This document shows positions 2,898 to 45,997 of a DNA stretch of 64,000 nucleotides, in pieces. The stretch spans positions 3,200,001 to 3,264,000 of the forward strand of contig OZ242296.1 of the NCBI GenBank assembly GCA_965207735.1. Direction: 5' to 3'. Under the pieces are notes generated by a model that saw only the letters and a program-made list of their open reading frames with translations, ran no database searches and was not told the DNA's origin. Every line of letters begins with the position of its first letter. Within the stretch, counting starts at the first letter, position 1. This DNA is from Candidatus Versatilivorator sp. (GTDB lineage Bacteria > Acidobacteriota > Terriglobia > Versatilivoradales > Versatilivoraceae). Both the position numbers and the translations under genes were made by a program.

Positions 2898-5800
2898 ATG
2901 CTGACGCCAGTGCGATTGCAATACATTGAAGCCTGTTCCGGGACCGCGATCTGGTCGGTAGTCATCCTGATTGCTCTCGCCTGCCCTGGCTCCTATCGTT
3001 CCCAAAACAGCCTGCCCAATCTCAAACCCTTTCAACCCGAAGGCTGGTCGGACGCCATCGTGGTCTCCAACCGGCAGGACACCAGTACCGACACCCTTGG
3101 ACTGGAAGCCTCCGACAGGATCTACGTGGATTTCGCCGTAATCAACAGCGGCAATTCCCCGGCGGCCGCACCATTTCGAGTCGAGCTCTTCCTGGACGGA
3201 CTGTTGTGGGAGACCTTCGACATTCCTACTCCCCTGGAGCCTCGGGCCTTTCGATTTCGTCTGGATTACCCTCTTGGACAAGTGGGCGCCGGCACCCATA
3301 CCCTCCAAGTCGTCGCCGATGCCGGAGACTCGATCTCGGAGAGCGACGAATCCGATAACGCCTATACACGGACGTTTAACGTCGGCAGCGACTGCTTTCC
3401 TCTGACAACCAGAGTTTCACCCCGGCGAGCCGGGACCCTGACCGTGAGTCGAGCACCCAATTGCGGCGGAAGCACCGTCAGCATCAGCCGATTTGCCGTT
3501 CCTGACGATAGTCCGTCGCGCGAGCCGGGTGAACTTGGCATCGCGGGTGAACCTGTGGTCAATGCCCAACGGGCGCGAGCATTTATCTCCCTTGGGGCGA
3601 GGGTTCAAACGGAGGATCGGGTAAGAGTGATCGTGGGATTGAGAACTGAAGGCCGATCGGTCGGCTCCGCCGCCTCCAGCTTGAGGGTGGCAGCCGCTCG
3701 CACGCCGGTGATTGCTCGCGCCCAGCAATCGGTGGCGAACCGGTTGAACGATCATAATGTGTCCATCATCCGGCGGTTCAAGTTCATTCCCTATGTGGCG
3801 ATGGAGGTGGACGAAGCAGCCTTGGATGCACTTGCTTCGGACCCGGAAGTCGTCAGCATCGAGGAAGATGAAGTCGTCCGGCCGACGCTGGAGGAAAGCG
3901 CGCCGTTGATTGGAGCTCCCCAGGCCTGGGCTCAAGGTTATGACGGTTCGGGACAAGCGATTGCCATCCTGGATACGGGGGTGAACAAGCATCACCCCTT
4001 TCTGTCGGAAAGGGTGGTGTCCGAGGCCTGCTATTCAAGTACGGAAGATCTCTTTTCACCACCGGTATGTCCCGGGGGCGTCAGCGAGTCGACCGGTTCG
4101 GGATCGGCAACCCCCTGTCCCGCGAGTGACTGCTATCACGGAACTTCAGTAGCCGGGGTCGCCGCCGGTCGAGGGACGGACTTCTCGGGCGTGGCCCCGG
4201 GGGCTCGGATCATCGCAATCCAGGTATTCTCTCAATGCTTTATCTCCAGGAACTGCATCCTCTCTTTCAATAGCGATTGGATCGCCGGGTTGGAGCGTGT
4301 TCTCGAGCTGAGCGCCAGCTTCGACATCGCTGCCGTCAACATGAGCTTCGGCGGCAGAACATTCTCGCAGGTATGCGACTCCGAATTCCCGGCTGCAAAA
4401 GACGCCCTGGACAACCTCCGCGCGGTCGGCATCGCCTCCATTGCATCCTCCGGAAACCGCGGCTCCGGCAAAGCCATCGAGTTCCCCGCCTGCATCTCCA
4501 GCGCTGTAAGCGTGGGGTCTACCGGCGACGGCGGTGAAGAGACTAGCTCGGAAACGGTCTCCGAGTTCTCAAACAGCTCACCTTTGCTGGACCTGCTGGC
4601 TCCGGGCGAGTCGATCACTACGTCCGGACCCGACGATAGTTTCGACACGTACAAGGGAACCTCCTATGCCGTTCCGCACGTGGCCGGCGCCTGGGCCGTG
4701 CTGAAATCCAAGGCTCCCAATGCCTCGGTCAGCGAACTGCTTTCCGTGCTGAAGGACACCGGCATCCCCATTGCCGACCCTCGAAACCGTCTCGTCACAC
4801 CCCGCATCCAGGTCGACGCCGCCCTCGACAGGATCGTTGAGGAACTACCCTACTCCTCCGGCACCCGCCTCACTCTGACCGCCAGACCCAATTCCGGATT
4901 TCGGTTCAAGAGCTGGCGGGGATGCGACTCCCCCTCCGGGAACCGGTGCGTGGTGGAGATGGAGTCAACCAAGCAGGTGGTTGCCTTTTTCGAACCGGCA
5001 GCGTCCAGCCTCCCGGATCTGATTACGACTTCACTGACGGGGCCCTCGACGGCGCTCATCGGCAGCACGGCTTCCATCTCCGCCGATATTCGCAATCAGG
5101 GTCCGGCCAACGCCGGTCCCTTCCGGTTGGGCCTCTATCTGTCTACAGACAGCACCATCACCACCGACGACACCTGGTTCGCCGCTTGCTCCTACGAGGC
5201 GGGCCTTCTGGCGGGAGAATCCGAAACCTGCAGCCGTTCCTATCCCATCCCTCCCCGGGTGAGTCCCGGCCGCTACTACCTGGGGGCTATTGTGGACGAT
5301 CTGGATCGGGTGGCCGAGAACAGCGAAACCAACAACGCTCGCGTGTCCGATTCAGGCCCGATGGATGTCCTGGCTCCCAGGACCCTCTCCCGTTCCTTCG
5401 TGCCGGTCATCCTGAGCGCCGAGGGACGCCGGGGCTCCTTCTTCACCTCGGAGCTGACCCTGACCAACCGAGGGTCTCGGGAGGCGAGCCTCAACTACAC
5501 CTACAGGGCACATGCCGGAGGGGGAAGCGGCATAGCCTCGGACCTGCTGGCTCCCGGGGAGCAGAGGATCGAACCCGACGCGCTCGGGCATCTCAGGCGC
5601 CTGGGTATCCCCGTCCCGGAGACGGGCAATCGTATCGGGACCCTGGGGGTTGAAGTCCTGGCCACTGAGGAGGTAGGCGTTCTGGTTCGAACCACGACCC
5701 TGGCGCCCGAGGGACGAGCCGGCCTTTCCTATCCGGGTGTCGCCGGCGGCCACGGGTTCGAGGAGCCGGTCTATCTGTGCGGCTTGCGTCAAAACATCCT

Positions 5801-6839
5801 GGACCGTTCCAACGTGGCCTTTCAGCACATGGGAAGTTCGGACGAGGGACCGATCACGCTGAGGACCACGGTATTCCCCGGGGATGAAGCCGATTCCAAT
5901 TCCCCCGACCTGAAGGACGTGACCCTGGAGCCGGGAGAATTTCACCAGTACTCGGAGGTGTTAGGTACCGTGGCCAACGGCTACGTCCGGGTGGAGCGGG
6001 TCGACGGAAAGGCCCCCTTCTATGCCTACGGGGTCATAAACGACAATGCCAACTCCGACGGCTCCTTCGTCTTTCCGGTCGCTTCCAGCTCCCTGGAGGG
6101 CAGCCTGCGCCACACCCTGCCGGTGATCGTCGAGGTCAACGAGTTCTCCAGCGAACTGACAGTGACCAACTTCTCCGAAGAGACCAAGACCCTCGACTTC
6201 AGCTTCGTGGCCGAGGGGCTCACCACTGCCGACCGCACGGCCCGCTTCAGCCTGAGGCTGGAACCGGGACAGCAGCGGATCATTCCCGACGTCATCGACA
6301 CCGAATTGCGCCGGCAGGGCGTGGAGGGGGTGCCCGCGGGGAGGGGTGGACTGGCCGGGGCTCTGTTCGCCACAGTGAAGAGCGGCGACATGAACGGGAT
6401 CGTGATCGGGGCCCGCACCAGCTCCTCCGACGGCCGCGGCGGGCAGTACGGGGTCTTCTACAACGCCGTGCCCGACGGAGCAGCATTTGGCGGCGCCGCC
6501 TGGATCGATGCCCTGCAGCAGAACGAAGAGAACCGCAGCAACCTGGCCCTGGTCAACACCGGAGAAGTCGACGACAGCCCCAGCGTCTTCGAGATCGACA
6601 TCTACGACGGGGAGACCGGCATGCTGGTCCGGACGGCCAAGACCCAACCGCTCCCCGCACTGCGCTGGCGCCAGATCAACGGAATTCTGGCCGACCATGC
6701 CCGGGGAACCACCCAGGGCTACGTTCGGGTCCGCCGGATTTCCGGCAACAATCCCTTCCTGGCCTACGGGGTAGTCAACGACGGCGGAGCCCCGGGCCAG
6801 CGTAGCGGCGACGGGGCCTACGTCCCGGCGCGCCGGTAG
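2898..6839 (+). CDS. Exported S8 (subtilisin-like) serine protease: CARDB - propeptide - S8 - CARDB - shared C-terminal domain
   Basis: Catalytic motifs ILDTG, HGTSVAG and GTSYAVPHVAG. CARDB signatures VADAGDSISESDESDN and IVDDLDRVAENSETNN. Hydrophobic N-terminus. The C-terminal ~480 aa is homologous to the next two genes. Confidence 0.92.
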   Translation: MLTPVRLQYIEACSGTAIWSVVILIALACPGSYRSQNSLPNLKPFQPEGWSDAIVVSNRQDTSTDTLGLEASDRIYVDFAVINSGNSPAAAPFRVELFLDGLLWETFDIPTPLEPRAFRFRLDYPLGQVGAGTHTLQVVADAGDSISESDESDNAYTRTFNVGSDCFPLTTRVSPRRAGTLTVSRAPNCGGSTVSISRFAVPDDSPSREPGELGIAGEPVVNAQRARAFISLGARVQTEDRVRVIVGLRTEGRSVGSAASSLRVAAARTPVIARAQQSVANRLNDHNVSIIRRFKFIPYVAMEVDEAALDALASDPEVVSIEEDEVVRPTLEESAPLIGAPQAWAQGYDGSGQAIAILDTGVNKHHPFLSERVVSEACYSSTEDLFSPPVCPGGVSESTGSGSATPCPASDCYHGTSVAGVAAGRGTDFSGVAPGARIIAIQVFSQCFISRNCILSFNSDWIAGLERVLELSASFDIAAVNMSFGGRTFSQVCDSEFPAAKDALDNLRAVGIASIASSGNRGSGKAIEFPACISSAVSVGSTGDGGEETSSETVSEFSNSSPLLDLLAPGESITTSGPDDSFDTYKGTSYAVPHVAGAWAVLKSKAPNASVSELLSVLKDTGIPIADPRNRLVTPRIQVDAALDRIVEELPYSSGTRLTLTARPNSGFRFKSWRGCDSPSGNRCVVEMESTKQVVAFFEPAASSLPDLITTSLTGPSTALIGSTASISADIRNQGPANAGPFRLGLYLSTDSTITTDDTWFAACSYEAGLLAGESETCSRSYPIPPRVSPGRYYLGAIVDDLDRVAENSETNNARVSDSGPMDVLAPRTLSRSFVPVILSAEGRRGSFFTSELTLTNRGSREASLNYTYRAHAGGGSGIASDLLAPGEQRIEPDALGHLRRLGIPVPETGNRIGTLGVEVLATEEVGVLVRTTTLAPEGRAGLSYPGVAGGHGFEEPVYLCGLRQNILDRSNVAFQHMGSSDEGPITLRTTVFPGDEADSNSPDLKDVTLEPGEFHQYSEVLGTVANGYVRVERVDGKAPFYAYGVINDNANSDGSFVFPVASSSLEGSLRHTLPVIVEVNEFSSELTVTNFSEETKTLDFSFVAEGLTTADRTARFSLRLEPGQQRIIPDVIDTELRRQGVEGVPAGRGGLAGALFATVKSGDMNGIVIGARTSSSDGRGGQYGVFYNAVPDGAAFGGAAWIDALQQNEENRSNLALVNTGEVDDSPSVFEIDIYDGETGMLVRTAKTQPLPALRWRQINGILADHARGTTQGYVRVRRISGNNPFLAYGVVNDGGAPGQRSGDGAYVPARR

Positions 6840-6927
6840 GATTGGCGGCCAGGGTTCTTCCCTGGTTGCAAGGACAGTCTCAGCCCCTTTCCCCTTCAGG
6901 ACTAGAAGCGTCGTGCGGTTTATTTAC

Positions 6928-6955
6928 TTGACGAAACTACCGCATGGTATAGATT
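6928..6955 (+). promoter_or_regulatory. Putative sigma70 promoter of the 7017 gene
   Basis: TTGACG (6928-6933), 16-bp spacer, TAGATT (6950-6955), in an AT-rich intergenic stretch; GGGAG precedes ATG 7017. Confidence 0.45.
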
Positions 6956-7016
6956 TATAGCCCTTCATCACAGAACTGTCACAGGCGAAGCTCAAAAACA
7001 ACAGGGAGCAATTGTC

Positions 7017-9107
7017 ATGAAATCCAGATCGCTGATGATCGTTTTGGCGTGCGCCATTCTTCTGGTCGCCCTCTTTGCCGAAGTGCGCCCCGCCTCGGCC
7101 CAGGAAGCACCCGCTATCACGGCCCGGGATGTGGTGGACCGGGATTCCCTGAAAACCTTCGTCCAGGGAGCGATTGCATGGTTGGGGGCGCAATTCGAGA
7201 GTGGAGTGGCTGTGGACATTGACGCCCTGAAGGAGGTCTTCAGGATGGACCCTGGGCCCTGGAAGCATGGGTCCACCTACTTCGTTGTGCTGGTTAATAA
7301 CCGTCAAAGTGAAGATTTCATCTTGATATTCTTCGACGCAGGCAATCCGGACCGTGATTCCAAGTTCCTCGGGCTGCTCGAAGACGACAAGGTAGTGAAG
7401 GCCATGAAAGATCTGGTCGCTTTGGCAGTCGAGAATGCGCCCATGATGGAAGGAGGCTTTGTCGAGTATGAAGAGGCAGGCATGAGCAGAGTCAGCTATG
7501 CCCAACTTGTCGTAGCGCCGGCGAACGCAGGAGCTATCGCAGGTCAGGAACTGATCATCAGTGCCGGTTTCAATCCGGGAGACAGTCCAATCGAGATGGA
7601 CGTGATGACGACCTTCGTCCCGGTGGTGCTGGACTCGATGGGGAAGAGCAACTCCCACTTCACTTCGGAGCTGGCCCTGACCAACCGGGGTTCCGATGCG
7701 GCCATGCTCAACTTCACCTATACGGCCGAAGCCGGCGGGGGTAGCGGCATGGCCACCGACATGCTCGGCCCCCACCAGCAGATGATCGCCTCCAACGCCA
7801 TCGACTATCTCAGGAGCCTCAACGTTCCCATTCCCAAAACCGGCAGCCGGGTCGGGACCTTGAGAATGGATGTCTCGGGTTCTTCCGACGTGAGCGCGGT
7901 GGTCCGGACCACCACCCCCACGGCCGTCCCCGAAGGGCGCGCCGGACTGGCCTATCTTGGGATTCCGGAAAACGGGGGATTCCACGACGAAGCGGTTTAC
8001 CTGTGCGGGCTGCGCGACAACCCGGGGGACCGCTCCAACGTGGCCGTCCAGAACATGGGGTCGGAGGGCTCGATCACCTTGAGGATCACGGCCTTTTCCG
8101 GGAATCCGACCGATCCCAGCGGCGAAATGGTGTGGGAAGACACGCTGGGACCGGGAGAGTTCCACCAAGAAAACGCCGTGCTGATGGGGGCTGGCAAGGC
8201 AGCTCCCATTGGGGTCGGCTCTGGGGGCGGCTATGTGAAAGTAGAGCGGGTGGAGGGAATGGCGCCGTTCTACGCCTACGGGGTCATCAACGACAACGCC
8301 AACTCGGACGGCTCCTTTGTCTTTCCGGTCAGCGCCCCCTCGCTGGAGGGAGCCATGGGGCTAACGCTGCCGGCGTTGGTGGAGATTAACCAATTCACCA
8401 CCGAACTGACGCTGACCAACTTCTCGGACCAGCAGAAGGTGCTGATGTTCAGCGCCACCCACGAAAGAATCGAGACGGCGGGCAACACGGTCGGCTTCGG
8501 TCCGGTGCCGCTGGCCCCCGGTCACCAGTACATCATTCCCAATGCGCTCGAATTTGCGCGCCAAACCTACCAACTCGATGTGCCCACCAACCTGGTGGCA
8601 CCCCTGCAGGTCCACGCGGTCGGGGGAGACATGAGCGGGGTCGTGATCGGAGCCCGGGTGGTGGCGCAGGCGGATCCGGAAGATAGGACCAAGGGGCAGT
8701 ACGGCGTCTTCTACACGGCAGTGCCGCGGGGTCAGGGATTCACCACCAGCGCCTGGGTGGACGGGTTGCAGCAGAACGAGGAGAACCGCAGCAACCTGGC
8801 CCTGATCAACACCGGAGAAGTCGACGATGACGCAATCATCTTCGAGCTCGACATCTATGACGGAGAGACCGCCGCGCGGGTCAAGACCGTTACCATGGCG
8901 GAGGAACCCCAAGTCATGGTCCCGGCCAAGGGGTTTCGCCAGATCAACGGCATCCTGGGCACACACGCTCCGGGAACCACGCAGGGCTACGTTGAGATCC
9001 GCAAGGTCTCGGGTGGCAACCCCTTCCTGGCCTACGGAGTGGTCAACGACGGCGGGGCTCCGGGTGAGAGAACCGGTGACGGCGCTTATATCCCGGCCAG
9101 GGAGTAG
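7017..9107 (+). CDS. Secreted protein: one degenerate Cache-like domain plus the shared C-terminal domain
   Basis: Signal peptide ending ...RPASA|QE. Motifs GPWKHGSTYF, GGFVEY and IISAGF. Shared domain runs from FVPVV (7614) to GDGAYIPARE. Confidence 0.85.
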   Translation: MKSRSLMIVLACAILLVALFAEVRPASAQEAPAITARDVVDRDSLKTFVQGAIAWLGAQFESGVAVDIDALKEVFRMDPGPWKHGSTYFVVLVNNRQSEDFILIFFDAGNPDRDSKFLGLLEDDKVVKAMKDLVALAVENAPMMEGGFVEYEEAGMSRVSYAQLVVAPANAGAIAGQELIISAGFNPGDSPIEMDVMTTFVPVVLDSMGKSNSHFTSELALTNRGSDAAMLNFTYTAEAGGGSGMATDMLGPHQQMIASNAIDYLRSLNVPIPKTGSRVGTLRMDVSGSSDVSAVVRTTTPTAVPEGRAGLAYLGIPENGGFHDEAVYLCGLRDNPGDRSNVAVQNMGSEGSITLRITAFSGNPTDPSGEMVWEDTLGPGEFHQENAVLMGAGKAAPIGVGSGGGYVKVERVEGMAPFYAYGVINDNANSDGSFVFPVSAPSLEGAMGLTLPALVEINQFTTELTLTNFSDQQKVLMFSATHERIETAGNTVGFGPVPLAPGHQYIIPNALEFARQTYQLDVPTNLVAPLQVHAVGGDMSGVVIGARVVAQADPEDRTKGQYGVFYTAVPRGQGFTTSAWVDGLQQNEENRSNLALINTGEVDDDAIIFELDIYDGETAARVKTVTMAEEPQVMVPAKGFRQINGILGTHAPGTTQGYVEIRKVSGGNPFLAYGVVNDGGAPGERTGDGAYIPARE

Positions 9108-9329
9108 ACGTTTCCAATGGTGCGCCCCGGGCTTGCGCCCGGCTTACTCCCACGCCTACCTGCGGACGCCGCTTTCACAGCTTGCTGGAATCCCTCGGGC
9201 GGAAGCCCGGGGGCGTGTGGACCCCGCTCTGCCGCAACCGCATAAGCAGCGAATCAGGTGCACCCGTCGAGAATTCGGCGCCCGTCCTGAATATGCCGGG
9301 CTTACCCCTACTGAATCGCGTTAAAAAGG

Positions 9330-10816
9330 GAGCCTTTTGCAAAATTCGGAATCGGGCATGACATTGGGCTGGCAACAGTGATGTTCCGGCGGTGACTACC
9401 CAGCTGCAAAGACCCTTTTGAAGGAAAAAGCCCGAATCTGATGGCCGGATGGCCAGCGGTCGCCGGACGCAGGCACAGCTTACCCTCTCCCGGCCTTGAG
9501 GCGGGCGAACCTGCTGTGCGGTTGGGGGTGGCAACCCGGTCTTCAGAGCGTCAGGCGCATCAACTGATCCACCGTCAGGGCCAGAATGCCGAACATCAGG
9601 TGGCACCTCACCTTGTCGGGGCCGCGAACCCTCACCTGCCTCCCGCCAAACTCCTCCTTGAGCCGTCCGTTGACCCGCTCCACCGTCGAGCGTTCCCGGT
9701 AGCGCCGCGCCTCGGGAGTCACTTGGCCGATACAGCGCCGGGCCAGTGCCTCCCGCTTCCGCTCGGCTTTCAAGGTAGCTCTTCGGCGGGGGTTGACGTC
9801 AATAATCGGCACATGCCCCAGCTTCTCACTGAAGGCCCGGATCTCCGGCGCATCGTAGGCGCTGTCCATCAAGTCGTAGAGACTCTCGACCCGCCTTGCC
9901 GTCAGCGTCGCCAGCGGAATGGCTGCCTGAGAGTCATGCACCGAGGCCGAGGTCAGCAGACAACTGACCGGAATCCCGCCGTCAATGGCGTCGAGGTGTA
10001 GCTTGTAGCCGGTCCAGCTCTCCTGATGCCCCTTGGCGTTGCGCTTGACGCCGATGTCGCAGGCCTTGGGCAACTCCTTCAACATTTCCTCCAGCGTCAT
10101 CGACCCCTGCCGCTCCAGCCGGCTCAACCGCTTGGGCCGTCGCTCGCCCTTCGGCGGCCGGCCCCGCCGGCGTTTCCGCTTGGCCTCCGGCGCAGCCTTG
10201 GCCGCTGGCTTTTCCCGTCCCGCAATCGCCGTCGAGTCCCTCGACACATGCCCCGCCAAGTGGCCCTTCAGCGTCTCCTCCAGCAATGCCTCGTGCAAAC
10301 GCCCCGGCAGGTCGCTCTCAGCGAATTCCGCAAAGGCCCGCGAGAAGGTCGACTCGCTCGGTACCTCCCACGCCCTCTCCCAGCCGCACAGCCGCCGCAG
10401 CCTCCCCTCACTCCTCAGCCGCTCCACCAATCCCCGCGTGGTCGCCACCTCCAGCATCGACTTCGCCAGATAGGCTCGCGCCAGCACTGCCCGATCCTCC
10501 AGCGGCCGGCCACGCCAGCCCCGACTGTAAGGCAGCAACTCCTCCACCCGCACCAACTCCAATACCTGCACCAGCCGCTGGTAACGCTCTCCCAGAGGCC
10601 CCAAAACTTCCTCCAGCAGGGGAAACAGCTCTCGTTGAAACCGGAACCAGTGTCGTGATAGGGTTTCCCTAAGGGGCAAGTTCCACCTCCGTTCATCATG
10701 TGGTTCAGACACCTTCATGATACAACAGACAGTGGTCTTGCCCCTCCTTCCACCTGCCCTCCTTGATCTTTCCCCACGTGAAAATTCCCGCTATCTGCGA
10801 ATTTTGCAAAAGGCTC
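9330..10816 (-). mobile_element. Intact insertion sequence (IS5/IS1182-like DDE), 1487 bp
   Basis: Perfect 19-bp terminal inverted repeats GAGCCTTTTGCAAAATTCG (9330-9348) and CGAATTTTGCAAAAGGCTC (10798-10816). 4-bp target duplication AAGG at 9326-9329 and 10817-10820. One transposase ORF. Confidence 0.95.
9543..10718 (-). CDS. DDE transposase (DUF772-like N-terminus plus DDE_Tnp_1-like catalytic domain)
   Basis: Motifs PSESTFSR, DSTAI, GYKLHL, SVHDSQ, MDSAYD and YRERSTVERVNGRLK. Alternative start TTG at 10679 follows GGAGG. Confidence 0.93.
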   Translation of the reverse strand: MKVSEPHDERRWNLPLRETLSRHWFRFQRELFPLLEEVLGPLGERYQRLVQVLELVRVEELLPYSRGWRGRPLEDRAVLARAYLAKSMLEVATTRGLVERLRSEGRLRRLCGWERAWEVPSESTFSRAFAEFAESDLPGRLHEALLEETLKGHLAGHVSRDSTAIAGREKPAAKAAPEAKRKRRRGRPPKGERRPKRLSRLERQGSMTLEEMLKELPKACDIGVKRNAKGHQESWTGYKLHLDAIDGGIPVSCLLTSASVHDSQAAIPLATLTARRVESLYDLMDSAYDAPEIRAFSEKLGHVPIIDVNPRRRATLKAERKREALARRCIGQVTPEARRYRERSTVERVNGRLKEEFGGRQVRVRGPDKVRCHLMFGILALTVDQLMRLTL

Positions 10817-10830
10817 AAGGAGCACTTACC

Positions 10831-13407
10831 ATGAGATCTCCATCTCCCGTTGTTCTGTTGGCGTGCAGTCTGGTCCTGACCGGCCTCTTCTTCGAGGTGC
10901 GCCCCGCCTCGGCGCAGGCGCAGTTGGAGTGCTCTCGTCCGGAAGGTGTTGCGGAGGCCCCCACCCCCAGCATCACGGCCGCCGAGGTGGCAGCCAACCC
11001 GACCCCCGAAAACCTGAAGCAGTTTGCTCTGGAGGCAAAAAACTACGGCGACGGCCTCGACCATGCCGCGTTGGCCTATGTCATATGCCATTTCAAGCAG
11101 GAAGGGGGGGATTGGAAATCCGGTTCCATCTACATCACTTCGCTGACTTTCCTGGCTGGGGGTAGAGTGGAAATTCACGCCGGAAACATGGCCTTCGGAG
11201 GCAGGAAAGTCCGTGAGGACGTCTTCATGGCCATTGCTGCCGCGACCGGCTTCGATCCGGAAACTCAAATGTTCACCAAGCCGGACGGCGACGTCTTGCC
11301 GGAGGAGCTGGGAGGCTACGCAGTCGGAATGCATGTCAGTTTCGGTCCCATACAGTTCCCGTTAATCATGACGGCCGGCCTGGATCTGCAGGAGACTCAC
11401 CTGGTGCACGAAGTCTTCGATCCCGCCGACGCCCCGGAGGTCACCGCCAGTGAGGTGGTGGACCGGGAGAGCCTGAAGACCTTCGTGAATGGCGCGATCG
11501 ATCGCCTCGGAGAACTGTTCGCGACGGAGGGCTTGGGTGGCCTTACCAAAGCCAAGGCCGTTTTCAGAGAGGAGAACGGGCCTTGGAGAGAAGGTTCGGT
11601 CTACCTCTTCACCCTGGATGCTACCGGCTACGTCTGGTTTCACGGGGCATTTCCGCATCAGTTCGAGTTCGTAGTCGCCACCGGCAGATATATAGATGCC
11701 GTCACCGGAGAACCCATATTCCCCAAGATCATCGAGGCGGCCCAATCAGACCCGGAGGGCGCCTTCATCACCTATCATTTCGACGATCCCGCCGATGACT
11801 CCGACAGCGCGGACATACCCAAGACTGCTTTTGTGCGCCAGCACACCTACCCGGGTTTTGGCTTACCCTTTATCTTCGGCTCCGGCTTCTATACGAGAAC
11901 CGGTCCGCCGGACACCATGACCCAGTTCGTGCCGGTGGTACTGAGCGCGGGAGGCAAGAACAACTCCTACTTCACCTCGGAGCTGGCCCTGACCAACCGG
12001 GGAGCCGACGCGGCCATGCTCAACTTCACCTATACGGCCGATGCCGGCGGGGGCAGCGGCATGGCCACCGACATGCTCGGCCCGCACCAGCAGATGATCG
12101 CCTCCAACGCCATCGAGTATCTCAGGGGCCTCGACGTTCCCATTCCCGAAACCGGCAGCCGGATCGGGACCTTGCGGGTGGATGTGTCGGGGTCTTCCGA
12201 CGTGAGCACGGTGGTCCGGACCACCACTCCCACGGCCGTCCCCGAAGGGCGCGCCGGACTGGCCTATCTGGGGATTCCGGAAAACGAGGGATTCCACCAG
12301 GAAGCCGTCTACCTGTGCGGGCTGCGCGATCACCCGGGGGACCGCTCCAACGTGGCCGTCCAGAACATGGGGTCGGAGGGTGAGATCACCTTGAGGATCA
12401 CGGCCTTTTCCGGCAATCCGACCGATCCCAGCGGCGAAATGGTGTGGGAAGACACGCTGGGGCCGGGAGGGTTCTACCAGGCAAACGCCGTGCTGATGGG
12501 AGCTGGCAAGGCCGATCCCATGTTCGGGGGCTACGTGAAGGTGGAGCGGGTGGAGGGGATGGCTCCCTTCTACGCCTACGGGGTCATCAACGACAACGCC
12601 AACTCGGACGGCTCCTTTGTCTTTCCGGTCAGCGCCCCCTCGCTGGCGGGAGCCATGAGCCAGACCCTGCCGGCCTTGGTGGAGATTAACCAGTTCACCA
12701 CCGAACTGACGCTGACCAACTTCTCGGACCAGCCGAAGCTGGTGATGTTCAGCGCCACCCACGAAAGAATCGAGACGCCGGACAACACGGCCGGCTTCGG
12801 TCCCCTGCCGATGCTGCCGGGTCAGCAGTTGATCATTCCCCATGCGCTGGCCTACGCCCGTCAGAACCTGGGGCTCAATGTGCCCATGGGCCTGGTGGTG
12901 CCCCTGATCGCCAACGCGGTGGAGGGAGATCTCAGCGGGGTCGTGATCGGAGCCCGGGTGGTGGCGCAGGCGGATCCGGAAGATAGGACCAAGGGGCAGT
13001 ACGGCGTCTTCTACACGGCAGTGCCGCGGGGTCAGGGATTCACCACCAGTGCCTGGGTGGACGGGTTGCAGCAGAACGAGGAGAACCGCGGCAACCTGGC
13101 CCTGGTCAACACCGGAGAGGTCGACAGCAGCGCCAGTGTCTTCGAGCTCGACATCTATGACGGGGAGACCGCCACGCTGGTGAAGACCGTTACCATGGCG
13201 GAGGAACCCCAAGCCATGGTCCCGGCCAGGGGCTTCCGCCAGATCAACGGCATCCTGGGCGCACACGCCCCGGGAACCACGCAGGGCTACGTCAGAATCC
13301 GCAAGGTCTCGGGGGCCAATCCCTTCCTGGCCTACGGAGTCGTCAACGACGGCGGGGCTCCGGGTGAGAGAACCGGTGACGGCGCCTATATCCCGGCCAG
13401 GGAGTAG
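10831..13407 (+). CDS. Secreted protein: two Cache-like domains plus the shared C-terminal domain
   Basis: ATG 10831 follows AAGGAG; the ORF-track start at 10717 lies inside the IS. Signal peptide is paralogous to the 7017 gene (FxEVRPASAQ). sCache_2-like motifs YLFTLDATGYVWFHG, KIIEAA, FITYHFDDP, KTAFV and IFGSGFY. Confidence 0.88.
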   Translation: MRSPSPVVLLACSLVLTGLFFEVRPASAQAQLECSRPEGVAEAPTPSITAAEVAANPTPENLKQFALEAKNYGDGLDHAALAYVICHFKQEGGDWKSGSIYITSLTFLAGGRVEIHAGNMAFGGRKVREDVFMAIAAATGFDPETQMFTKPDGDVLPEELGGYAVGMHVSFGPIQFPLIMTAGLDLQETHLVHEVFDPADAPEVTASEVVDRESLKTFVNGAIDRLGELFATEGLGGLTKAKAVFREENGPWREGSVYLFTLDATGYVWFHGAFPHQFEFVVATGRYIDAVTGEPIFPKIIEAAQSDPEGAFITYHFDDPADDSDSADIPKTAFVRQHTYPGFGLPFIFGSGFYTRTGPPDTMTQFVPVVLSAGGKNNSYFTSELALTNRGADAAMLNFTYTADAGGGSGMATDMLGPHQQMIASNAIEYLRGLDVPIPETGSRIGTLRVDVSGSSDVSTVVRTTTPTAVPEGRAGLAYLGIPENEGFHQEAVYLCGLRDHPGDRSNVAVQNMGSEGEITLRITAFSGNPTDPSGEMVWEDTLGPGGFYQANAVLMGAGKADPMFGGYVKVERVEGMAPFYAYGVINDNANSDGSFVFPVSAPSLAGAMSQTLPALVEINQFTTELTLTNFSDQPKLVMFSATHERIETPDNTAGFGPLPMLPGQQLIIPHALAYARQNLGLNVPMGLVVPLIANAVEGDLSGVVIGARVVAQADPEDRTKGQYGVFYTAVPRGQGFTTSAWVDGLQQNEENRGNLALVNTGEVDSSASVFELDIYDGETATLVKTVTMAEEPQAMVPARGFRQINGILGAHAPGTTQGYVRIRKVSGANPFLAYGVVNDGGAPGERTGDGAYIPARE

Positions 13408-13448
13408 GCCACCAGCCACCCACTACGCCACCGTGGCAGCATCCTCAT

Positions 13449-13575: not shown

Positions 13576-16500
13576 ATGGGTCTATTCGTGTTAATTCGTG
13601 TACATTCGTGGTTCGCCTTTCCTTCCATCCTCCTCACCGGACTGGCGCTTTCCTCCGCTGCCTCCGGTGCTGAGCGAAGCGACCTACCCACCTTCAAGGC
13701 GGACGTTCTGCCGATCCTTGCCGAAAATTGCCTGATGTGCCACGGCCAGGAACCCAGGCAGGGCGAGCTGGACCTTCAGTCGGCGGCGGCCCTGCTCCAG
13801 GGCGGCCAATCGGGCCCGGCCATCGTCGCCGGCAGCCCCGATCGAAGCCTGATCATGGAGAAGCTGGTCAGCGGGCAGATGCCGCCCGGCGAGGCCAGGC
13901 TTTCACCCGAGGATATCGACCGCATCCGCCGCTGGATCGAGCGCGGCGCGCCCAGGGAATACGGCCGGACTGCCGATGGAGACGTATCCCCCCATTCAGG
14001 CCTTCCCGCCGTCAGCGAAAAGGACGTACTGCCCATCTTCCAGGTGCGCTGCGTGGCCTGCCACGGCAAGCGGCGCCAGGAGGCCGGGCTGGACCTGCGG
14101 ACACGGGCTTCCAGGCTGAAGGGCGGCCGCTCCGGTCCGGCCGTTCTTCCCGGAGATCCCGACCAGAGCCCGATCATCCAAAAGATCGAGTCGGGGGAAA
14201 TGCCGCCGGTGGAAATGCAGTTGGCCAACTCGGTGCGGCCTCCCACCGCAGCCGAGCTGCAGTTGCTGCGCCGCTGGATTGCCGGCGGCGCCCCTCCCGA
14301 TCCTCCGGTTTCCACGGCGGAGGCAGCCAATGGAGCTCCCGCCGTAACCGGGGAGGACCGCAAGTTCTGGTCCTTCCAACCGCCCGTGCGCCCCTCGATT
14401 CCTGACCTCCGGGCTCAGAAATTGGTCCGGACGCCGGTGGATGCCTTCCTGCTGACCAGGTTGGAGGCCAAGGGGTTGACCTTCTCCCCGCCGGCCTCGC
14501 CGCTGCAGTTGTTGCGGCGGGCCTACCTGGACCTGGTGGGGATGCCCCCCTCAGCCGCCGAAGTCAAGGCCTACCTGCAGGATAAGCGACCCGATGCCTA
14601 TGAGCGCATGATCGAGCGCCTGCTCAGTTCCAGACATTACGGCGAGCGCTGGGGGCGATACTGGCTGGACCTGGCCGGCTATTCCGACTCGGAAGGCTTT
14701 GGAGCCCACGACCGCTTCCGGCCCTTCGCCTGGCGCTACCGGGACTACGTGATTCGATCCTTCAACCGGGACAAGCCCTATTCGCAGTTTCTGATGGAGC
14801 AGATCGCCGGGGACGAGCTGGCCGACTACCGCAAGGAAAAAGTCACCCCGGAGTTGATCGATCGGCTGGCGGCCACCGGGTTTCTTCGGACCACCCCCGA
14901 TCCCACCGATGCCCCCGAGAGGGGGTTCATCCCCGAGCGCATGAACATCATCGCCGACGAGATCGAGGTCCTGACCTCGGCCGTGATGGGCCTCACCGTC
15001 AAGTGCGCCCGCTGCCACGACCACAAGTACGACCCCATCCCCCAAAAAGATTACTACCGCCTGAGCGCCATTTTTCAGACCAGCTACGATCCCTACGAAT
15101 GGCTTCCGCCCAAGAAGCGAAGGATCCCCATCGGCCTGGAACGAGAGAAGGAGGAAGTGGCGGCTCACAACCGGCCCTTGAAGGCCGAGATTCGGTCCCT
15201 GGAAAAAGGCCTGCTCAAGGAAGCGGCGCCCTTCGTCGACAAGCTGCTGGAAGAGCGATTGGCCGATCTGCCGGAAACGCTACGGAAGGAGCTGCGCGCC
15301 CTGGCCCATTCCCCGAGGGATTACCAGGGAGGAGAGCTCAGCCGAAAATTCCTGGTGGTCCGGGAGCTTCCGGAAGATGAAAGCTCCCAGGTGCGCCGCT
15401 ATCTGGCCGGAAAGTTCAAGAAAACGCTGCAGATTGGACTGGCCGATCTGAACCGGCGCTTTCCCGAGTTCGGCCCCAAGACCGAGAGCCTTCGCAAGCA
15501 GTTGGACGAGGTCAAGGGCAAGCTGCGTACCGAGCCCTATGTCCGGGCGCTCATGGATACCGGCGGCCGGCCCTCGACCACCTTCCTGCTGAAACGGGGC
15601 AACCACCTGTCACCCGGAGACGCCGTCACCCCGGGCGTCCCGGCAGTCCTGACCACCGGTCTGACCCCCTATCGGGTCGACCCCCTGAAGCACGCCCAGG
15701 ATTCCAGCGGCCGCCGCCTGGCGCTGGCGCGCTGGCTGACCCAACCCGCACATCCCCTGACCTCACGGGTCCTGGTGAACCAGGTCTGGCTCAGACACTT
15801 CGGCCGGGGACTGGTTCCCAGCCCTTCCAACTTCGGACGGGCGGGGGAGCCTCCCACCCATCCAGAGCTGCTGGACTGGCTGGCCACCGAATTCGTCAAC
15901 CGGGGCTGGAGCATCAAGACCCTGCACCGGATCATGATGACCTCCACCGCCTATCGTCAGACCTCACGGATCGGCCCGGAGACCCTGGAGCTCGACCCTG
16001 AGAATGCCCTTCTGTCTCGAATGCGGAGAGGACGGATGGATGCCGAGGCCCTCTACGACTCCATCCTGAAGGTGACGGGGCGACTGGACCCGACGCCCTT
16101 CGGACCGGCCGACGCGTTGGAAACCAAACCCAACAAGGAGGTGGTTGCCAAGGGCTCCAGGGCGGGCTTCCGCCGCAGCATCTACACCCAGCAGCGCCGC
16201 TACGATCCGGTATCCCTGCTGGAAGCCTACGACCTGCCTCGAATGACTCCCAATTGCGTGGAGCGCGAGAACTCGACCGTGGCTACCCAGGCCCTGCACA
16301 TGATGAACGGCACCACCGTGTGGGAGCACTCCCGCTACATGGCAGGCAGGATCATCGACCGGGTCGGCTACGACCCCAAGCGCCAGATCGGTCAAGCCTA
16401 CCTGCAGGCTCTGTCCCGAGAGCCGACCGAGTGGGAACTGGAGCGCAGCCGGGCCGCCCTGGAGCAGTTCGCCGGCCACTGGAAATCTCGCCTGCGCAAC

Positions 16501-19148: not shown

Positions 19149-19330
19149 GCCTTGCCTGAAACAAACGAAAAAAGACAAAAGAAAAAGAGTTATCCACGAA
19201 GGGACACGAAGAACGACGAAGGACCACTAAGGCGCTGAGGTTGGCCGCGACGGAGTACCAAGTTCACGAAAGGATTGTCGATTTCCGATTGTTTCACTCT
19301 CGTATGATCCGCCCGGCAGGGCGGGGACAC
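19149..19330 (+). repeat. Dispersed ~170-bp repeat (module A)
   Basis: CCTGAAACAA...TTATCCACGAAGGGACACGAAGAACGACGAAGG...CACTAAGGCGCTGAGGTT...GTCGATTTCCGATTGTTTCACTC...GATCCGCCC. Recurs near 35982, 36318 and 36645, and split/inverted at 39961-40158. Confidence 0.9.
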
Positions 19331-35981: not shown

Positions 35982-36815
35982 GGCTTGTCTGAAACAACCG
36001 ACAAAAGACTTATCCACGAAGGGGCACGAAGAACGACGAAGGGACACTAAGGCGCTGAGGTTAACCGCAACGGGGTACCAAGCTCGCGAAAGGATGGTCG
36101 ATTTCCGATTGTTTCACTCCCGAATGATCCGCCCACCAGGGCGGGGGCCGGACTTTTAAGTAATTGATTATCCCCGGGCGAACGCCCGGGCGACCCATTG
36201 AGCCGCGGAGCGGCGGCAGCAGGTAGCCGTGGGCGTGAGCCCATGGAAAGGGGTAGCTCCACGTCGAGCCGCGAAGGCGGCGGCAGCAGAGGGCCGAAAG
36301 CGCGAGGCCCCGGAGACCGGCTCTCCTGAAACAATAGAAAAAAGAGTTATCCACTAAGGCCGACCAAGGGCCACTAAGGCGTTGAGGTGAACCGCGACGG
36401 GGTACCAAGCTCGCGAAAGGATGGTCGATTTCCGATTGTTTCACTCCCGAATGATCCGCCCACCAGGGCGGGGGCCGGACTTTTAAGTAATTGATTATCC
36501 CCGGGCGAACGCCCGGGCGACCCATTGAGCCGCGGAGCGGCGGCAGCAGGTAGCCGTGGGCGTGAGCCCATGGATAGGGGTAGCTCCACGTCGAGCCGCG
36601 AAGGCGGCGGCAGCAGAGGGCCGAAAGCGCGAGGCCCCGGAGACCGGCTCTCCTGAAACAATAGAAAAAAGAGTTATCCACTAAGGCCGACCAAGGGCCA
36701 CTAAGGCGTTGAGGTGAACCGCGACGGGGTACCAAGCTCGCGAAAGGATGGTCGATTTCCGATTGTTTCACTCTCGGATGATCTGCCCGGCAGGGCAGGA
36801 GCCCGGCTTACCTGA
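35982..36815 (+). repeat. Tandem array of about 2.5 composite units (module A plus REP type 3 doublet), 327-bp period
   Basis: CTGAAACAA anchors at 35989, 36326 and 36653. Most of 36045-36772 is duplicated almost identically at +327. Confidence 0.95.
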
Positions 36816-36842
36816 GAATCTGCTGCTTAAGCCGGCTTCCTT

Positions 36843-36931
36843 GAGAGCGGCGAAGCCGCGCCAGCACTTAGCCGTGGGCGTCAGCCCATGGGAAGCGTCG
36901 CCTATGGGTGTCGAGCCGCGTAGGCGGCGAC
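36843..36931 (+). repeat. REP type 3 doublet; its last unit abuts the integrative element
   Basis: GAGCGGCGAAGCCGCGCCAGC..TAGCCGTGGGCGTCAGCCCATGG...GAGCCGCGTAGGCGGCGAC; same layout as 36200-36290. Confidence 0.8.
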
Positions 36932-39327
36932 TACATCAGAAAACTTGTAACTGCTCATTATAATAGACTTACTGTGGTTTGTCCTGTTGTAATCCCCTCA
37001 TTATATCCCTCTATTTGAACGGGAATCCACTGGACTATTCAGGACGTTGGTGGACGTAACTGTTCGGTCAAGGTGTGGAATACCGGTCGGTCGGCATCCT
37101 CCCCGCAGCGATCAAGCCACATTGCGTCGGTGTCGCCGCTGAGCCGCCATCGTAGCGGCTGGCCCCCCAGGTCAGGCCAGCCGAGAGTGCTCGCCAGCCA
37201 CGAAACCCCTCTACACGGCTGGCGAACCGACCATATCGTTCTGACTGCACGAGTTTCATCTCCGCTCTCTGCCCCCAGTCCCGATGGAGGTGGAAGGGGG
37301 ACGCTTCGTCGGTTGCTCGGTTAGCACAGAGGACAAACCCGCAGGAGGTCGAGCCCACAGCTTGACCGAACAGTTACTGGTGGACAGTCTTACGATCATT
37401 CGACCCCCGAGACTCTGCGTCCGGGAACGTCGAGCGGGGTGGCAAGCTGCCGGTGCTGCAGACCGGAGATGTCGGGTTGTGAGCATCCTCCAGCCTTGCC
37501 CTTCTCGGCCTCTGGCCATCTGTGGTCTTCTGTTCTTCGAGGGCTTCATAGACGAGGGCGCGCAGCCAGGAGCCGACGTCGAGGTGCCGCTGGATGACGA
37601 GGCGCTGGAGGCCTTCCCGCCAGGGATCACTGTGGAGGGAGCGACCCCCGAAAACGAGGGGCGGAAGGGTGGCCAGAGGCCTGGCCACCTTTCCACCCGC
37701 TCGTGGCGCACCAGCGGCAAAAATGAGGGGGTCGCTCCCTCCACTTCCTCCCCTCTCGTGCGGCGCGCCACCCCGCCGGGCGAGGGGGGGACGCGCGAGG
37801 CGCAGCCTCGCTTCGCTTTTCCGCAGCGGACGCGGGGAATCCGTGCCAACCCGCTTCCAATGCGGGTTTCCGGGCACAACCTGGACCACGACGGCGAGGA
37901 CTCCGCCCTCTGAGAGAGGAGCGTTGGGGTGGTCGAAATCATGTCCACCTTGGATGTCCACCCCGCCGTCTGAAAGGTGGACACCCCTACGACGCCACGT
38001 CCTTGACCCCCGGAGGCGGAAATCGTCGATCATGTCGCGGCCGTTGGAGGCCGGGTCTTCCTGCTCCCATTGGTCGATCTTCTCCATGACGACACCGAGG
38101 CCGCCATGGCGTTCGATCGTGTCCTGACCCCTGAATCCGCGAGCTTTGCGGGGGCTGGCTGGGCTTTCTCACTCCCTGGCATATCAGGACACCCCGGAAC
38201 GCCTCCTGGACCGATTCCCGTCTCAGGGACCGCAGGGACCGCCGCCTGTGGGGAAACCGGAATGGCCGGCTCGCTCAGCTGTCCCGGGGTCGCCATGCGG
38301 AGAGAGCGACCTCCGTGCGGGGGCAAAGGGTGTCCGGACTCCTGGCCGCCTTTGCCCTCCTCCGTGGCGCGCCAGCGCCGAAAAAGGGGGCGCTGTCACC
38401 GCCAGCACCCGTCTCGTGCGGCGCCGACGCGCCGGGCGAGGCGGGGACAGCGAGGCCGGCGCCGCAACGCGTAGTGCCGGGGAGCCAGCCTACCCAATGT
38501 AGTACATTGGCGCTGGCGAGGGGCTCCCGCCCCTTCGAACCCCCGACCGGGGGGAACTCCCCCTTGCCCCCCGTCATCCCCGCCGCTCCCTTCTTCCTCT
38601 GCCGGGAACTTGGAGCCTGGCTCTCACCCTGGTTTGCCCCGGGCAACCGATCCCCTGGGCCAGGTAACGCGCCCAGTCGTCCATCAGGACACGCCGGCGC
38701 TCGAACAGGTCCGAGCGGGCATAGGCCGCCTCGATCCGGTTCCGGACCACATGCGCCAGGGCCGCCTCGACCACCTCCCGGGGATGATCCGTCTCTTCGG
38801 CCGCCCAGTCCCGGAAGCTGGAGCGGAACCCGTGCGGCACGGCCGCAATCCCCTGCTCGCGGACCAGCCACCGCAGCTCCTTGTCATTGAGCGGCTTCCC
38901 TTGCCCGCGGGTGAACACCAGAGGACCGGCTCCTTCGCCCAGAGTCCGTGCCGCTTCGAGAATCCCCAACGCTCGGCCACGGACGACCAGGCGTTGAATC
39001 CAACTGCGGGTTCCGCTGGGCTGGACGAAGAGGTACAATCCGTTTCCATCGGCGTATCTACCGGGCGGAGCGGAGCGCAGGAAGGCAGCCGAGAGGGCGT
39101 TGCTGGGGTGACGGCCGGTGAGTTTGGTCTTAGGTCGGGCAGGAGCGAAGTCCGTTACCGTATCTATCCCCCCATATTATGGGGGATGGCAATGGATTTC
39201 AGGGGACGTTGGTAGCAAGTCAACCCACAGTAGAACTGGTCTAAGACACTCATAAATAACACAGTTATGGACTCTACTGGACGCCCCTAGACATCACTGG
39301 ATTTTATAGGGACGTTGCGGCGGCGGC
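36923..39327 (-). mobile_element. Decayed ~2.4-kb tyrosine-integrase element (integrative element remnant)
   Basis: Integrase pseudogene at the right end. Both termini are AT-rich and share motifs ATCCCC(T/C)CAT and TGGA...TTCAGG(GG)ACGTTGGT (about 36992-37051 and 39166-39213). Putative core GGCGGCG(A/G)C at 36923-36931 and 39319-39327. Confidence 0.65.
38574..39161 (-). pseudogene. P4-like tyrosine integrase with arm-DNA-binding N-terminus, internally deleted
   Basis: NALSAAFLRSAPPGRYADGNGLYLFVQPSGTRSWIQR is joined in frame to HGFRSSFRDWAAE...AALAH...AAYARSDLFERRR.LMDDW. The core-binding domain and first catalytic Arg are absent. The probable start reads ACG at 39161-39159. Confidence 0.9.
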
Positions 39328-39373: not shown

Positions 39374-39612
39374 GAGCCTTTTGCAAATATCGCAATCGGG
39401 AATGACATTGAGGCGGCAAGGATGATGTGCTGCAGGCTCCAGCATTCACCACGATAAGCACACGAGACAACAGAAAGCACAAAAGGCACAAAACGAGTTT
39501 CTTGATTTCGAGACTTGCCCATCCGATGGTTCTTTTTATGCTTTTTGTGGTTTTTGTGCCTTTTGTGGCCATTCCCGGCAAAGGTCCCGCTGGTGAATGT
39601 TGCAAAGGGCTC
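39374..39612. mobile_element. 239-bp MITE related to the IS at 9330-10816
   Basis: The first 55 nt match the IS left end at 45 positions; right end GAATGTTGCAAAGGGCTC; 4-bp target duplication TGAT at 39370-39373 and 39613-39616. Confidence 0.9.
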
Positions 39613-39691
39613 TGATGTTTATTTGAAACAACGCCTTGTGCCGGGTGGCGGAACATCCGTTCAAAATCAAACAAAGTTAGACGGCTAATTT

Positions 39692-39897
39692 ACATGGATG
39701 CACAGGATGGACAGGATTATTGGGCGAGAGTTTCCACCGTCATGAGTCCAACCATCGCCTCTGTTCCAACACAGATTTTCCAAGACCCGCTCCCAGGCTC
39801 TTGGATCAGTTCCAACAGCCGCCCGATCATCAAGCGGGTCTGCTTCTGTGGCACAGCCTCCCGTGCCGTTTATCCTGTTTATCCTGTGCATCCATGT
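39692..39897 (-). mobile_element. 206-bp element with 9-bp-periodic inverted ends enclosing a decayed GxxExxY-like gene fragment
   Basis: ACATGGATGCACAGGATGGACAGGAT and ATCCTGTTTATCCTGTGCATCCATGT are inverted copies (24 of 26). The minus strand reads MDAQDKQDKRHGRLCH, then after a frameshift KQTRLMIGRLLELIQEPGSG...EAMVGL. Confidence 0.65.
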
Positions 39898-40007
39898 TCA
39901 ATAAGTAGAAAACCGGTTTGGCACGACAGGGCCCTTGTTCCCGACAGGCCATGAAGACTCATTGTTTCACTCTTGTATGATCCGCCCGTCGTGGGGGGCG
40001 GGGGCCC

Positions 40008-40158
40008 GGCTTGCCTGAATCAGCAGAGCGACATCCCTTCGTGACCTTGCTATCCCGTCGCGGTAAGACTCAACGCCTTTGTGGCCCTTTGTCGTTCTTA
40101 GTGGCCCTTCGTGGATAACTCTTTTTCTTTTGTCTTTTTCGGTTGTTTCAGGCGAGCC
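40008..40158 (-). repeat. Inverted module A copy bounded by GGCTYGCCTGAA inverted repeats
   Basis: GGCTTGCCTGAA (40008-40019) and TTCAGGCGAGCC (40147-40158). The interior is a close reverse-complement match to 19149-19280. The 3' half of module A lies in direct orientation at 39961-40007. Confidence 0.85.
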
Positions 40159-45575: not shown

Positions 45576-45989
45576 TCACCCCAGTACTTCGAAAGCCAAC
45601 TTGCGACCGCGGCCGTAGCGGAAGACCGCGAAATCGTTATCAAAGGAGATGACCCGCGATATGCCAAGCCGTTCCATGAGCGCAAACGACGTTCGATCGA
45701 CAAGGGAGAAGTCCTGGTCGGGGAAGCGTTCGCCGATAGCCCAGGCACCCTCCAGGTCAGCCCAGGTTGTCTGTTCAATGGTCGCCGCTCCGTTTCTCAG
45801 ACCGGCCCAAAAAGTCTCTGCGGCGTTGGCAGAAATAAAATGGTGGAGGAGACGCCAAGTCTCAACCAGTATGTGGTCGCTGGTAACCAACGCTTCGTCA
45901 ATGGCAAGAAGGTGCTTCGCACGACCGTTGTGCTGGTCACCACGATCAGCGGCCGCGTACCAGGCCGAGCTGTCAACGAAGACGCTCAT
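45576..45989 (-). CDS. vapC: PIN-domain (VapC-like) toxin
   Basis: FVDSSAW, ILVET, FSLVDRTSFALM and SFDNDF provide the acidic PIN residues. Confidence 0.9.
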   Translation of the reverse strand: MSVFVDSSAWYAAADRGDQHNGRAKHLLAIDEALVTSDHILVETWRLLHHFISANAAETFWAGLRNGAATIEQTTWADLEGAWAIGERFPDQDFSLVDRTSFALMERLGISRVISFDNDFAVFRYGRGRKLAFEVLG

Positions 45990-45997
45990 GGCGGATC

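Follow-up and report, generated by a model that had tools for sequence, protein, structure and literature searches.

Classical MITEs of DDE insertion sequences are short, non-coding, multicopy and bounded by inverted repeats, and in REP/RAYT systems a small nuclease gene, there encoding an HUH enzyme, is found with its own repeats and with many gene-less copies of them. MITEPpu9 of Pseudomonas putida KT2440 is a non-coding module that, according to the account in PMC12288879, shares its left and right boxes with the transposase gene of ISPpu9 and forms circles; the ISPpu9/MITEPpu9 pair is described there with an AG core and the motif GCCC-N4-GGGC in the left box. For IS621, the left guides are described as resembling, core included, the top-strand sequence at both the left target and the left donor (PMC11208160). 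The function of the PD-(D/E)XK family PF13366 is entered as 'Unknown' in PMC3424549.

The element studied here lies at positions 39692 to 39897 of a 64,000-nucleotide stretch of DNA from Candidatus Versatilivorator sp., which we call the window, and its likely vehicle is a variant of a published, MITEPpu9-like kind. As far as the published description goes, the two have in common the AG core, a non-coding module within IS110 boxes, the GCCC-N4-GGGC left box and the occurrence of tandem modules (PMC12288879). They differ in number and content, as about 190 framed units are present here and their cargo is varied, with relics of a different gene family among it. ISPpu9 is described as inserting into REPs, whereas here the target-guide word equals the donor-guide word and every IS copy lies behind another right end; circles were demonstrated there and are predicted here (PMC12288879). 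Tandem non-coding units together with full IS110 modules, whose boundaries match the left donor, are shared with the expanded IS110 loci of bioRxiv 10.64898/2026.08.14.744561, where the account speaks of adaptive genes as cargo rather than repeat relics as here. With IS621 our system shares a non-coding left end and target and donor guides that include the core dinucleotide; on the coding strand the core is AG here and CT there, and our guide assignment, which is modelled on IS621, covers the left guides alone (PMC11208160).

The relic within the element brings in a different comparison. In common with the Ssn/NTS system (SRM), as described in PMC11893778, there is a small nuclease gene in its own repeats, single-copy and at a fixed locus, alongside hundreds of gene-less repeats in lineage-specific variants. 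In contrast to both Ssn/NTS and REP/RAYT, GxxExxY is a PD-(D/E)XK protein (PF13366) and not a GIY-YIG or HUH enzyme, and its repeats are 9-10-nt periodic arms that overlap the gene start and on which any action of the nuclease is putative. Unlike in classical DDE MITEs, the moving unit does not end at the relic arms, and the arms are not accompanied by a target duplication.

The element and its relic

The arms at 39692-39717 and 39872-39897 are inverted copies of each other with 24 of 26 positions identical, whereas inverted 26-mers from 30 shuffles of the region agree at 17 positions at most. Each arm contains a lead unit, ACATGGAT, and two ACAGGAT words at a spacing of 9 nt (39702/39711; 39872/39881), and the predicted fold, in which the two arms pair, has a z of -7.8. 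The minus strand translates as MDAQDKQDKRHGRLCH and then, in a different frame, as KQTRLMIGRLLELIQEPGSGSWKICVGTEAMVGLMTVETLAQ*, so that the inverted periodic ends and the MDAQDKQD start with its frameshifted continuation, both noted in a preliminary description of this DNA, are confirmed. The element sits in a 4.1-kb spacer that runs from a DUF1501 gene (end 35969) to a multihaem/TPR gene (start 40111). The unit that is common to the copies exceeds 206 bp, extending over about 39618-40009 with IS110 ends as its limits, and the following features can be assigned:

39872..39897, minus strand: 5' arm of the relic cassette, which holds the old start codon and encodes MDAQDKQD; arm and N-terminus are also found in the intact L058-L060, L063, L064 and L068
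39782..39871, minus strand: GxxExxY relic piece 1, frameshifted, covering the N-terminus as far as the motif's G, from the DNA match to the L059 cassette
39726..39760, minus strand: GxxExxY relic piece 2, the V-E-L-K (ExK) stretch, from the match to L064 and the alignment of copies
39692..39717, minus strand: 3' arm, which repeats the 5' arm in inverted orientation (24/26 match)
39962..40009, minus strand: IS110-type left end of about 48 nt, a GC-rich hairpin terminating in TGAAACAA, as in the genome's 10 IS110 copies
39898..39961, minus strand: 64-nt linker from the left end to the 5' arm, common to copies
39632..39691, minus strand: 60-nt linker from the 3' arm to the right end, common to copies
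39618..39631, minus strand: IS110-type right end, degenerate, with TTGTTTCA retained and the terminal AG lost; sister copies have the canonical end
39374..39612, minus strand: second passenger, a CACAAAAGG-armed module between degenerate IS5/IS1182-like terminal repeats (39374-39389 and 39597-39612)
36807..36816, minus strand: secondary right-end-like word CTCAGGTAAG, at which composite units end in G002 and G009
40010..40156, no single strand: neighbouring unit with a CACGAAGG arm and IS110-type right ends on both sides (40010-40023 minus, degenerate; 40143-40156 plus)
35984..36800, minus strand: further IS110-framed units of the same array, with left ends near 36110, 36437 and 36764 and a right end at 35984-35997

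An AG core at 40011-40010 stands immediately before the left end of the window copy. Piece 2 reads MVGLM here and MVELK in several sister copies. The CACAAAAGG-armed module contains a C-terminal GxxExxY relic, ASLEIKKLVL (about 39489-39518), and, lying between IS5/IS1182-like repeats, fits the classical DDE MITE class; the array units at 35984..36800 hold CACGAAGG arms and REP-like hairpins. The word CTCAGGTAAG likely closes a composite unit of the window copy's subtype, with a 2.4-kb insert separating the two here: copies with a degenerate end have this word within 600 nt in 13 of 22 cases in relatives and in only 2 of 15 in G000, the genome of the window. Because its right end has decayed, the window copy probably moved inside such a longer composite or no longer moves.

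The 2.4-kb insert (window 36930-39318) lies inside a REP-like module of the array and is missing from G002. It contains a 154-aa ORF (38574-39038, minus strand) that gave no match in a Pfam search and that we take to be a decayed phage-type integrase fragment. Elsewhere in the window, 72-nt tandem units with leucine-rich-repeat-like spacing occur in a coding region (933-1486), three paralogous genes stand 2.2-4.3 kb apart (5381-13408), and two short minus-strand ORFs of 82 and 141 aa (45576-46246) may encode an antitoxin and its PIN-domain partner.

Searches with the TIGR04256 profile covered 41 genomes. The same-genus intact genes inside CACAGGAT arms start MDAQDKQD or MDRQDGQD, and these intact parent genes match both the PF13366 and the TIGR04256 models. 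The relic matches the L059 cassette at 76% over 113 nt (39782-39893, E 2e-19), and its VELK stretch matches L064 at 83% over 35 nt. With the arms removed, the relic interior outscores 200 of 200 shuffles against each of seven cognate-clade GxxExxY genes; against seven GxxExxY genes of other clades the scores are lower, and 7-135 of the 200 shuffles equal them. The GxxExxY origin suggested in the preliminary description therefore holds at the DNA level and has little counterpart in protein searches, as the family-model search returned no GxxExxY match at the relic locus itself and the pairwise protein match is weak (E about 6e-4). Given the DNA matches to L059 and L064 and the outcome of the cognate-clade shuffle test, the 206-base element is a double-deletion derivative of a GxxExxY (PF13366) gene that has retained its arms. 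An intact frame of about 115-130 aa is lacking, as two internal deletions and frameshifts have accumulated: the N-terminal part stops at the motif's G and is followed by a deletion in which the Y and the catalytic D are lost, then by the ExK stretch, and then by a second deletion that reaches the 3' arm. In G011 the sequence LGSGFLES is preserved in an older copy.

GxxExxY genes and arm flavours

At 41 of 49 GxxExxY genes the inverted flanks score above the 95th percentile of 194 control windows, which upholds periodic inverted arms as a class linked to GxxExxY. No target duplication was found at the relic arms. All four arm flavours that had been reported for the window are present in it: in addition to CACAGGAT, we located CACAAAAGG at 39478/39559, CACGAAGG at 19195, 36015, 40036 and 40106, and CACGAAT three times at 13584-13604 with 10-nt spacing. 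Each flavour belongs to one supported GxxExxY clade (CACAGGAT 100/99, CACAAAAGG 100/100, CACGAAT 100/99 and CACGAAGG 99/97), a mapping that shows association and not co-evolution because all clades were sampled from one genus. A search of the published literature found no pairing of such arms with GxxExxY.

The genome of the window has 243 CACAGGAT-type arms, forming 84 pairs, and a search of it for an intact GxxExxY gene found none, the best matches being one N-terminal half and one C-terminal half. Of 14 genomes from the same genus, 7 have the cognate gene intact, each in a single copy. It occupies one junction in six of the seven, between genes that by sequence reading are gspE- and gspF-like, and tandem relics surround it; at the same junction G000 has relics only. 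Four of the five relic-rich genomes (17-32 matches) lack the intact cognate gene, namely G000 with 19 relic matches, G002 with 28, G009 with 17 and G011 with 32; the fifth, G005, has 24 matches and the intact gene. The other six gene-bearing genomes have 0-2 relic matches each, a count to be read with the fact that three of them are fragmented assemblies, which hide repeats. Multicopy GxxExxY sequences examined in the genus mostly travel within the ends of what are, seemingly, other elements. CACAAAAGG-clade genes, intact or nearly so, lie in G009 (4 copies) and G002 between terminal repeats that resemble the repeats of an IS5/IS1182-like element of 391 aa, for which the best model, IS1182, scores below its cut-off.

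The CACGAAT-clade genes L237, L238 and L239 (G011, G009) occupy a unit of about 600 nt with CTAG on both sides and without terminal inverted repeats. G000 contains about 200 IS5/IS1182-like terminal repeats, and L001 (G000:2249924-2250109), its only long GxxExxY remnant, is cut exactly at such a repeat. In other genera, intact GxxExxY cassettes occur as head-to-tail triplets with spacings of 477 and 483 nt (G014:C59 287495-288799; G017:C4 160000-161317; L052).

The IS110 frame and its guide-like words

Twenty-three copies of the relic can be aligned along more than 150 nt, and almost all of them are alike for 60-110 nt outside the arms. This common flank beyond the arms rules out the arms as the ends of a classical TIR MITE. 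Homology between the copies extends to TGAAACAA on one side and to TTGTTTCA on the other, and this frame-end 8-mer occurs 589 times against about 108 expected. We weighed whether TTGTTTCA/TGAAACAA might be integron attC, dif, CRISPR or DDE ends, and dropped these candidates because the same ends bracket the IS110 gene. A frame consists of the left end of about 48 nt and the right end TTGTTTCAG(A/G)CAAG. G000 has 286 left and 284 right ends, and 191 of its units are framed, with a reversed-genome control for the frame counts giving 0 and 10. The cargo of its framed units is nothing (18), a CACGAAGG arm (126), the IS110 gene (10) or CACAGGAT modules, and left ends that follow a right end do so at identical spacing in 104 of 128 cases.

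For the 24 relic arm pairs of G000, a left end lies 64-67 nt upstream in 15 and a right end within 250 nt in 17; both IS110 ends are present in 12, at least one is nearby in 20, and 4 have neither. Both inverted 8-mers are in the expected place in 38 of the 40 relic copies in G002, G005 and G009. The same left linker, followed by the arm, leads into at least three different interiors. All seven G000 linker pairs hold an arm unit (197-206 nt apart), with none of the seven joined without arms. Among 17 loci searched for an ancestral, unframed relic source none was found, most old copies already having a left end or its remains. Counting against IS110 as the carrier of the relic, 36 of the 84 CACAGGAT arm pairs of G000 stand more than 250 nt from any IS110 end.

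The only IS110 found in G000 is present in 10 full-length copies of 464-468 aa (NF033542, above cut-off). A tandem IS110 pair in G013 has a spacing of 1675 nt, equal to the predicted unit length, and this spacing, together with the match of the guide to the outer end, disfavours the view that IS110 entered, as a small insertion, an empty unit that was already there. In the non-coding left region of IS110 the word AG(A/G)CAAG occurs twice. The second, donor-guide-like word is identical to the copy's own right end in all 10 G000 copies (8 G-type and 2 A-type, switching together) and in 19 of 20 copies in relatives, L161 being mismatched, for a total of 29/30. Barring the A/G position, the first, target-guide-like word equals the second in G000, G002, G004, G005 and G013, and a further right end immediately precedes the copies in 10 of 10 cases in G000 and 16 of 16 in G002/G004/G005/G013. 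From this we infer that the target guide is self-matching and would stack units head to tail. A variant IS110 in G008, 80% identical, has GGTCAG as its target-guide word, and 5 of its 5 copies lie behind GGTYAG in heptamer repeats.

Folding of a single non-coding region is no better than that of shuffles (z 0.5), the consensus fold of the region has 1 compensatory pair of 46, and an Rfam search gave no match to a bridge-RNA family. No intact cognate IS110 was found in G009, which has 232 left-end motifs and 17 relic matches, or in G011, with 65 motifs and 32 relic matches. G004, in which IS110 is present with 148 left-end motifs, has one relic match, and all three genomes count against carriage of the relic by IS110.

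The loci of the G008 variant in 7-nt tandem repeats are L143, L152, L159, L165 and L167; at locus L216 of G005, similar repeats precede an ORF that we take for a four-helix-bundle gene. A 5-nt GCAAG/ACAAG duplication is often seen after the right end or at empty sites (G000 1615662, 2699217 and 758907; L214, L225) and may be a trace left by excision or by offset recombination. The array hairpin module matches the Rfam family Acido-Lenti-1 (RF01687, 42 bits, above gathering) at L137:2129-2174, G000 about 4681028-4681073, and similar hairpins occur in the window at 36200-36300, 36530-36630 and 36845-36930. What is catalogued as an 'sRNA' family may thus be a mobile repeat that travels within IS110-framed arrays. 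A group II intron domain (RF02003) lies just upstream of one IS110 copy (L135:29-171).

Junctions and modes of spread

At the window locus, G002 has the same relic, six relatives have other CACAGGAT arms, and six have none. To judge from the 94% identity of the G002 counterpart, the window copy is inherited at this locus. The relic is absent from G000 at 33 of 34 syntenic sites (29 distinct sites) that correspond to relic loci of relatives, a count that omits the six of 40 loci without a syntenic pair; the element is thus polymorphic for presence and absence, as the preliminary description had anticipated. The syntenic anchors were set with 130 and 100 nt around the relic interior masked, so that anchor distances provide no test, and as the genomes are kin, six of them fragmented, the counts are not independent.

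None of the 18 loci inspected has its junction at the relic's own arms. At L214 and L225 the sequence is empty apart from a framed array acquired at AG, with an ambiguity of 5 nt in both cases. L190, L191 and L224 show a switch inside the left end and L222 a cargo swap in an unchanged frame, and the sequence of these four junctions points to homologous recombination. AG lies exactly at the junction of 91 of 158 array-initial left ends, compared with a genome frequency of 5.8%. Contigs from 8 sequencing runs are broken at the repeats, and no circle was seen in them. An arm pair of another subfamily has collapsed to a 10-nt palindrome (G000:3481291), and in G011 the L243 cassette stands, almost from arm to arm, in place of a 29-nt spacer; these two cases leave room for an arm-level mechanism in the family at large.

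Taken together, the homology of the relic, the ends it has in common with IS110, its presence and absence among relatives, and the guide-like words that match both the right end and the targets argue that the element, a dead GxxExxY cassette, was probably multiplied as cargo of miniature self-targeting IS110 units, and that an RNA-guided IS110 recombinase encoded in the genome acted on it in trans, rather than the nuclease. An arm-bracketed relic would have come to lie between IS110 ends, from where the recombinase would cut out the unit from AG to AG, forming a circle, and place it into CAGRYAAG-like sites, directly after the last G. With a target guide equal to the donor guide, each insertion would leave a fresh target at its right end, and units would therefore pile up head to tail as mosaic arrays. 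As these arrays offer many identical ends and arms, host recombination between them would then swap or delete cargo, and homologous recombination likely contributes to the spread in this way alongside IS110. The earlier proposal of a small nuclease as the mobiliser is not supported for this element, since no intact GxxExxY gene was found in G000, genomes with many copies mostly lack the gene, and the inspected junctions lie outside the arms, with copies framed by the ends of IS110 recombinase elements. The accompanying claim that neither a DDE nor an HUH transposase is responsible survives for the window copy only in that IS110 is its likely mover, and does not suit the CACAAAAGG neighbour, which lies between DDE-type IS5/IS1182-like repeats.

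The main rival account gives the host a larger role, with IS110 seeding the frames only and the relic spreading mainly by homologous recombination and gene conversion among hundreds of near-identical left ends, right ends and arms. The crossovers in the left end (L190, L191, L224), the cargo swap at L222, the use of one left linker and arm for at least three interiors, and the richness in relics of G009 and G011 without an intact cognate IS110 would all fit this account. Conversion requires a pre-existing frame, however, and the L214 and L225 units stand at sites that are free of a frame in G000 and have their junctions at AG, which is also enriched at array starts; we regard the account as unlikely. 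It would seem rather improbable, too, that a GxxExxY nuclease recognises the arms and moves, or once moved, the 206-bp unit from arm to arm, the IS110 ends being incidental. The parent gene is fixed at one locus in 6 of 7 genomes, the G000 search found no intact gene, copies abound where the gene is absent, no G000 linker pair (0/7) is without its arm unit, and the arms have no target duplication. The points that would be well explained by such a nuclease are the arms at 41 of 49 GxxExxY genes, which track the protein clades, the several intact cassettes in other genera that abut adjacent stop and start codons, the almost arm-to-arm exchange at L243, the 36 of 84 unframed arm pairs, the palindrome at G000:3481291 as a conceivable empty site, and the ring of tandem relics around the parent gene.

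The stable predicted pairing of the arms and the intergenic position of the copies inspected would also suit a hairpin with a host function, e.g. in RNA stability or termination, that keeps or spreads the copies and makes the mover secondary. Fast turnover among close relatives and the pseudogene-like decay of the interior speak against this, and we consider it very improbable. In addition to carriage by IS110, we tentatively raise a two-tier repeat factory, in which each GxxExxY clade cuts its own 9-10-nt periodic arm and a self-targeting IS110 collects and stacks the resulting units. The nucleases would create arm-bounded units and recombination points, and an IS110 target guide that converged on its own donor end would give rise to the hundreds of mosaic intergenic arrays.

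The analysis separates two signals, the arms as the mark of origin from a GxxExxY cassette and the IS110 ends as the likely vehicle. Multicopy arm repeats alone therefore do not prove that GxxExxY moves DNA, which bears on many similar candidates. The IS110 copies form a natural series in which variation of the guides goes together with that of donor ends and targets, and one of the variants is self-matching, and the four GxxExxY clades, each with a defined arm word, provide candidate substrates for a family whose function is listed as 'Unknown'. If true, the two-tier factory would give a function to a widespread family of orphan nucleases and a mechanism for BIME-like mosaics.
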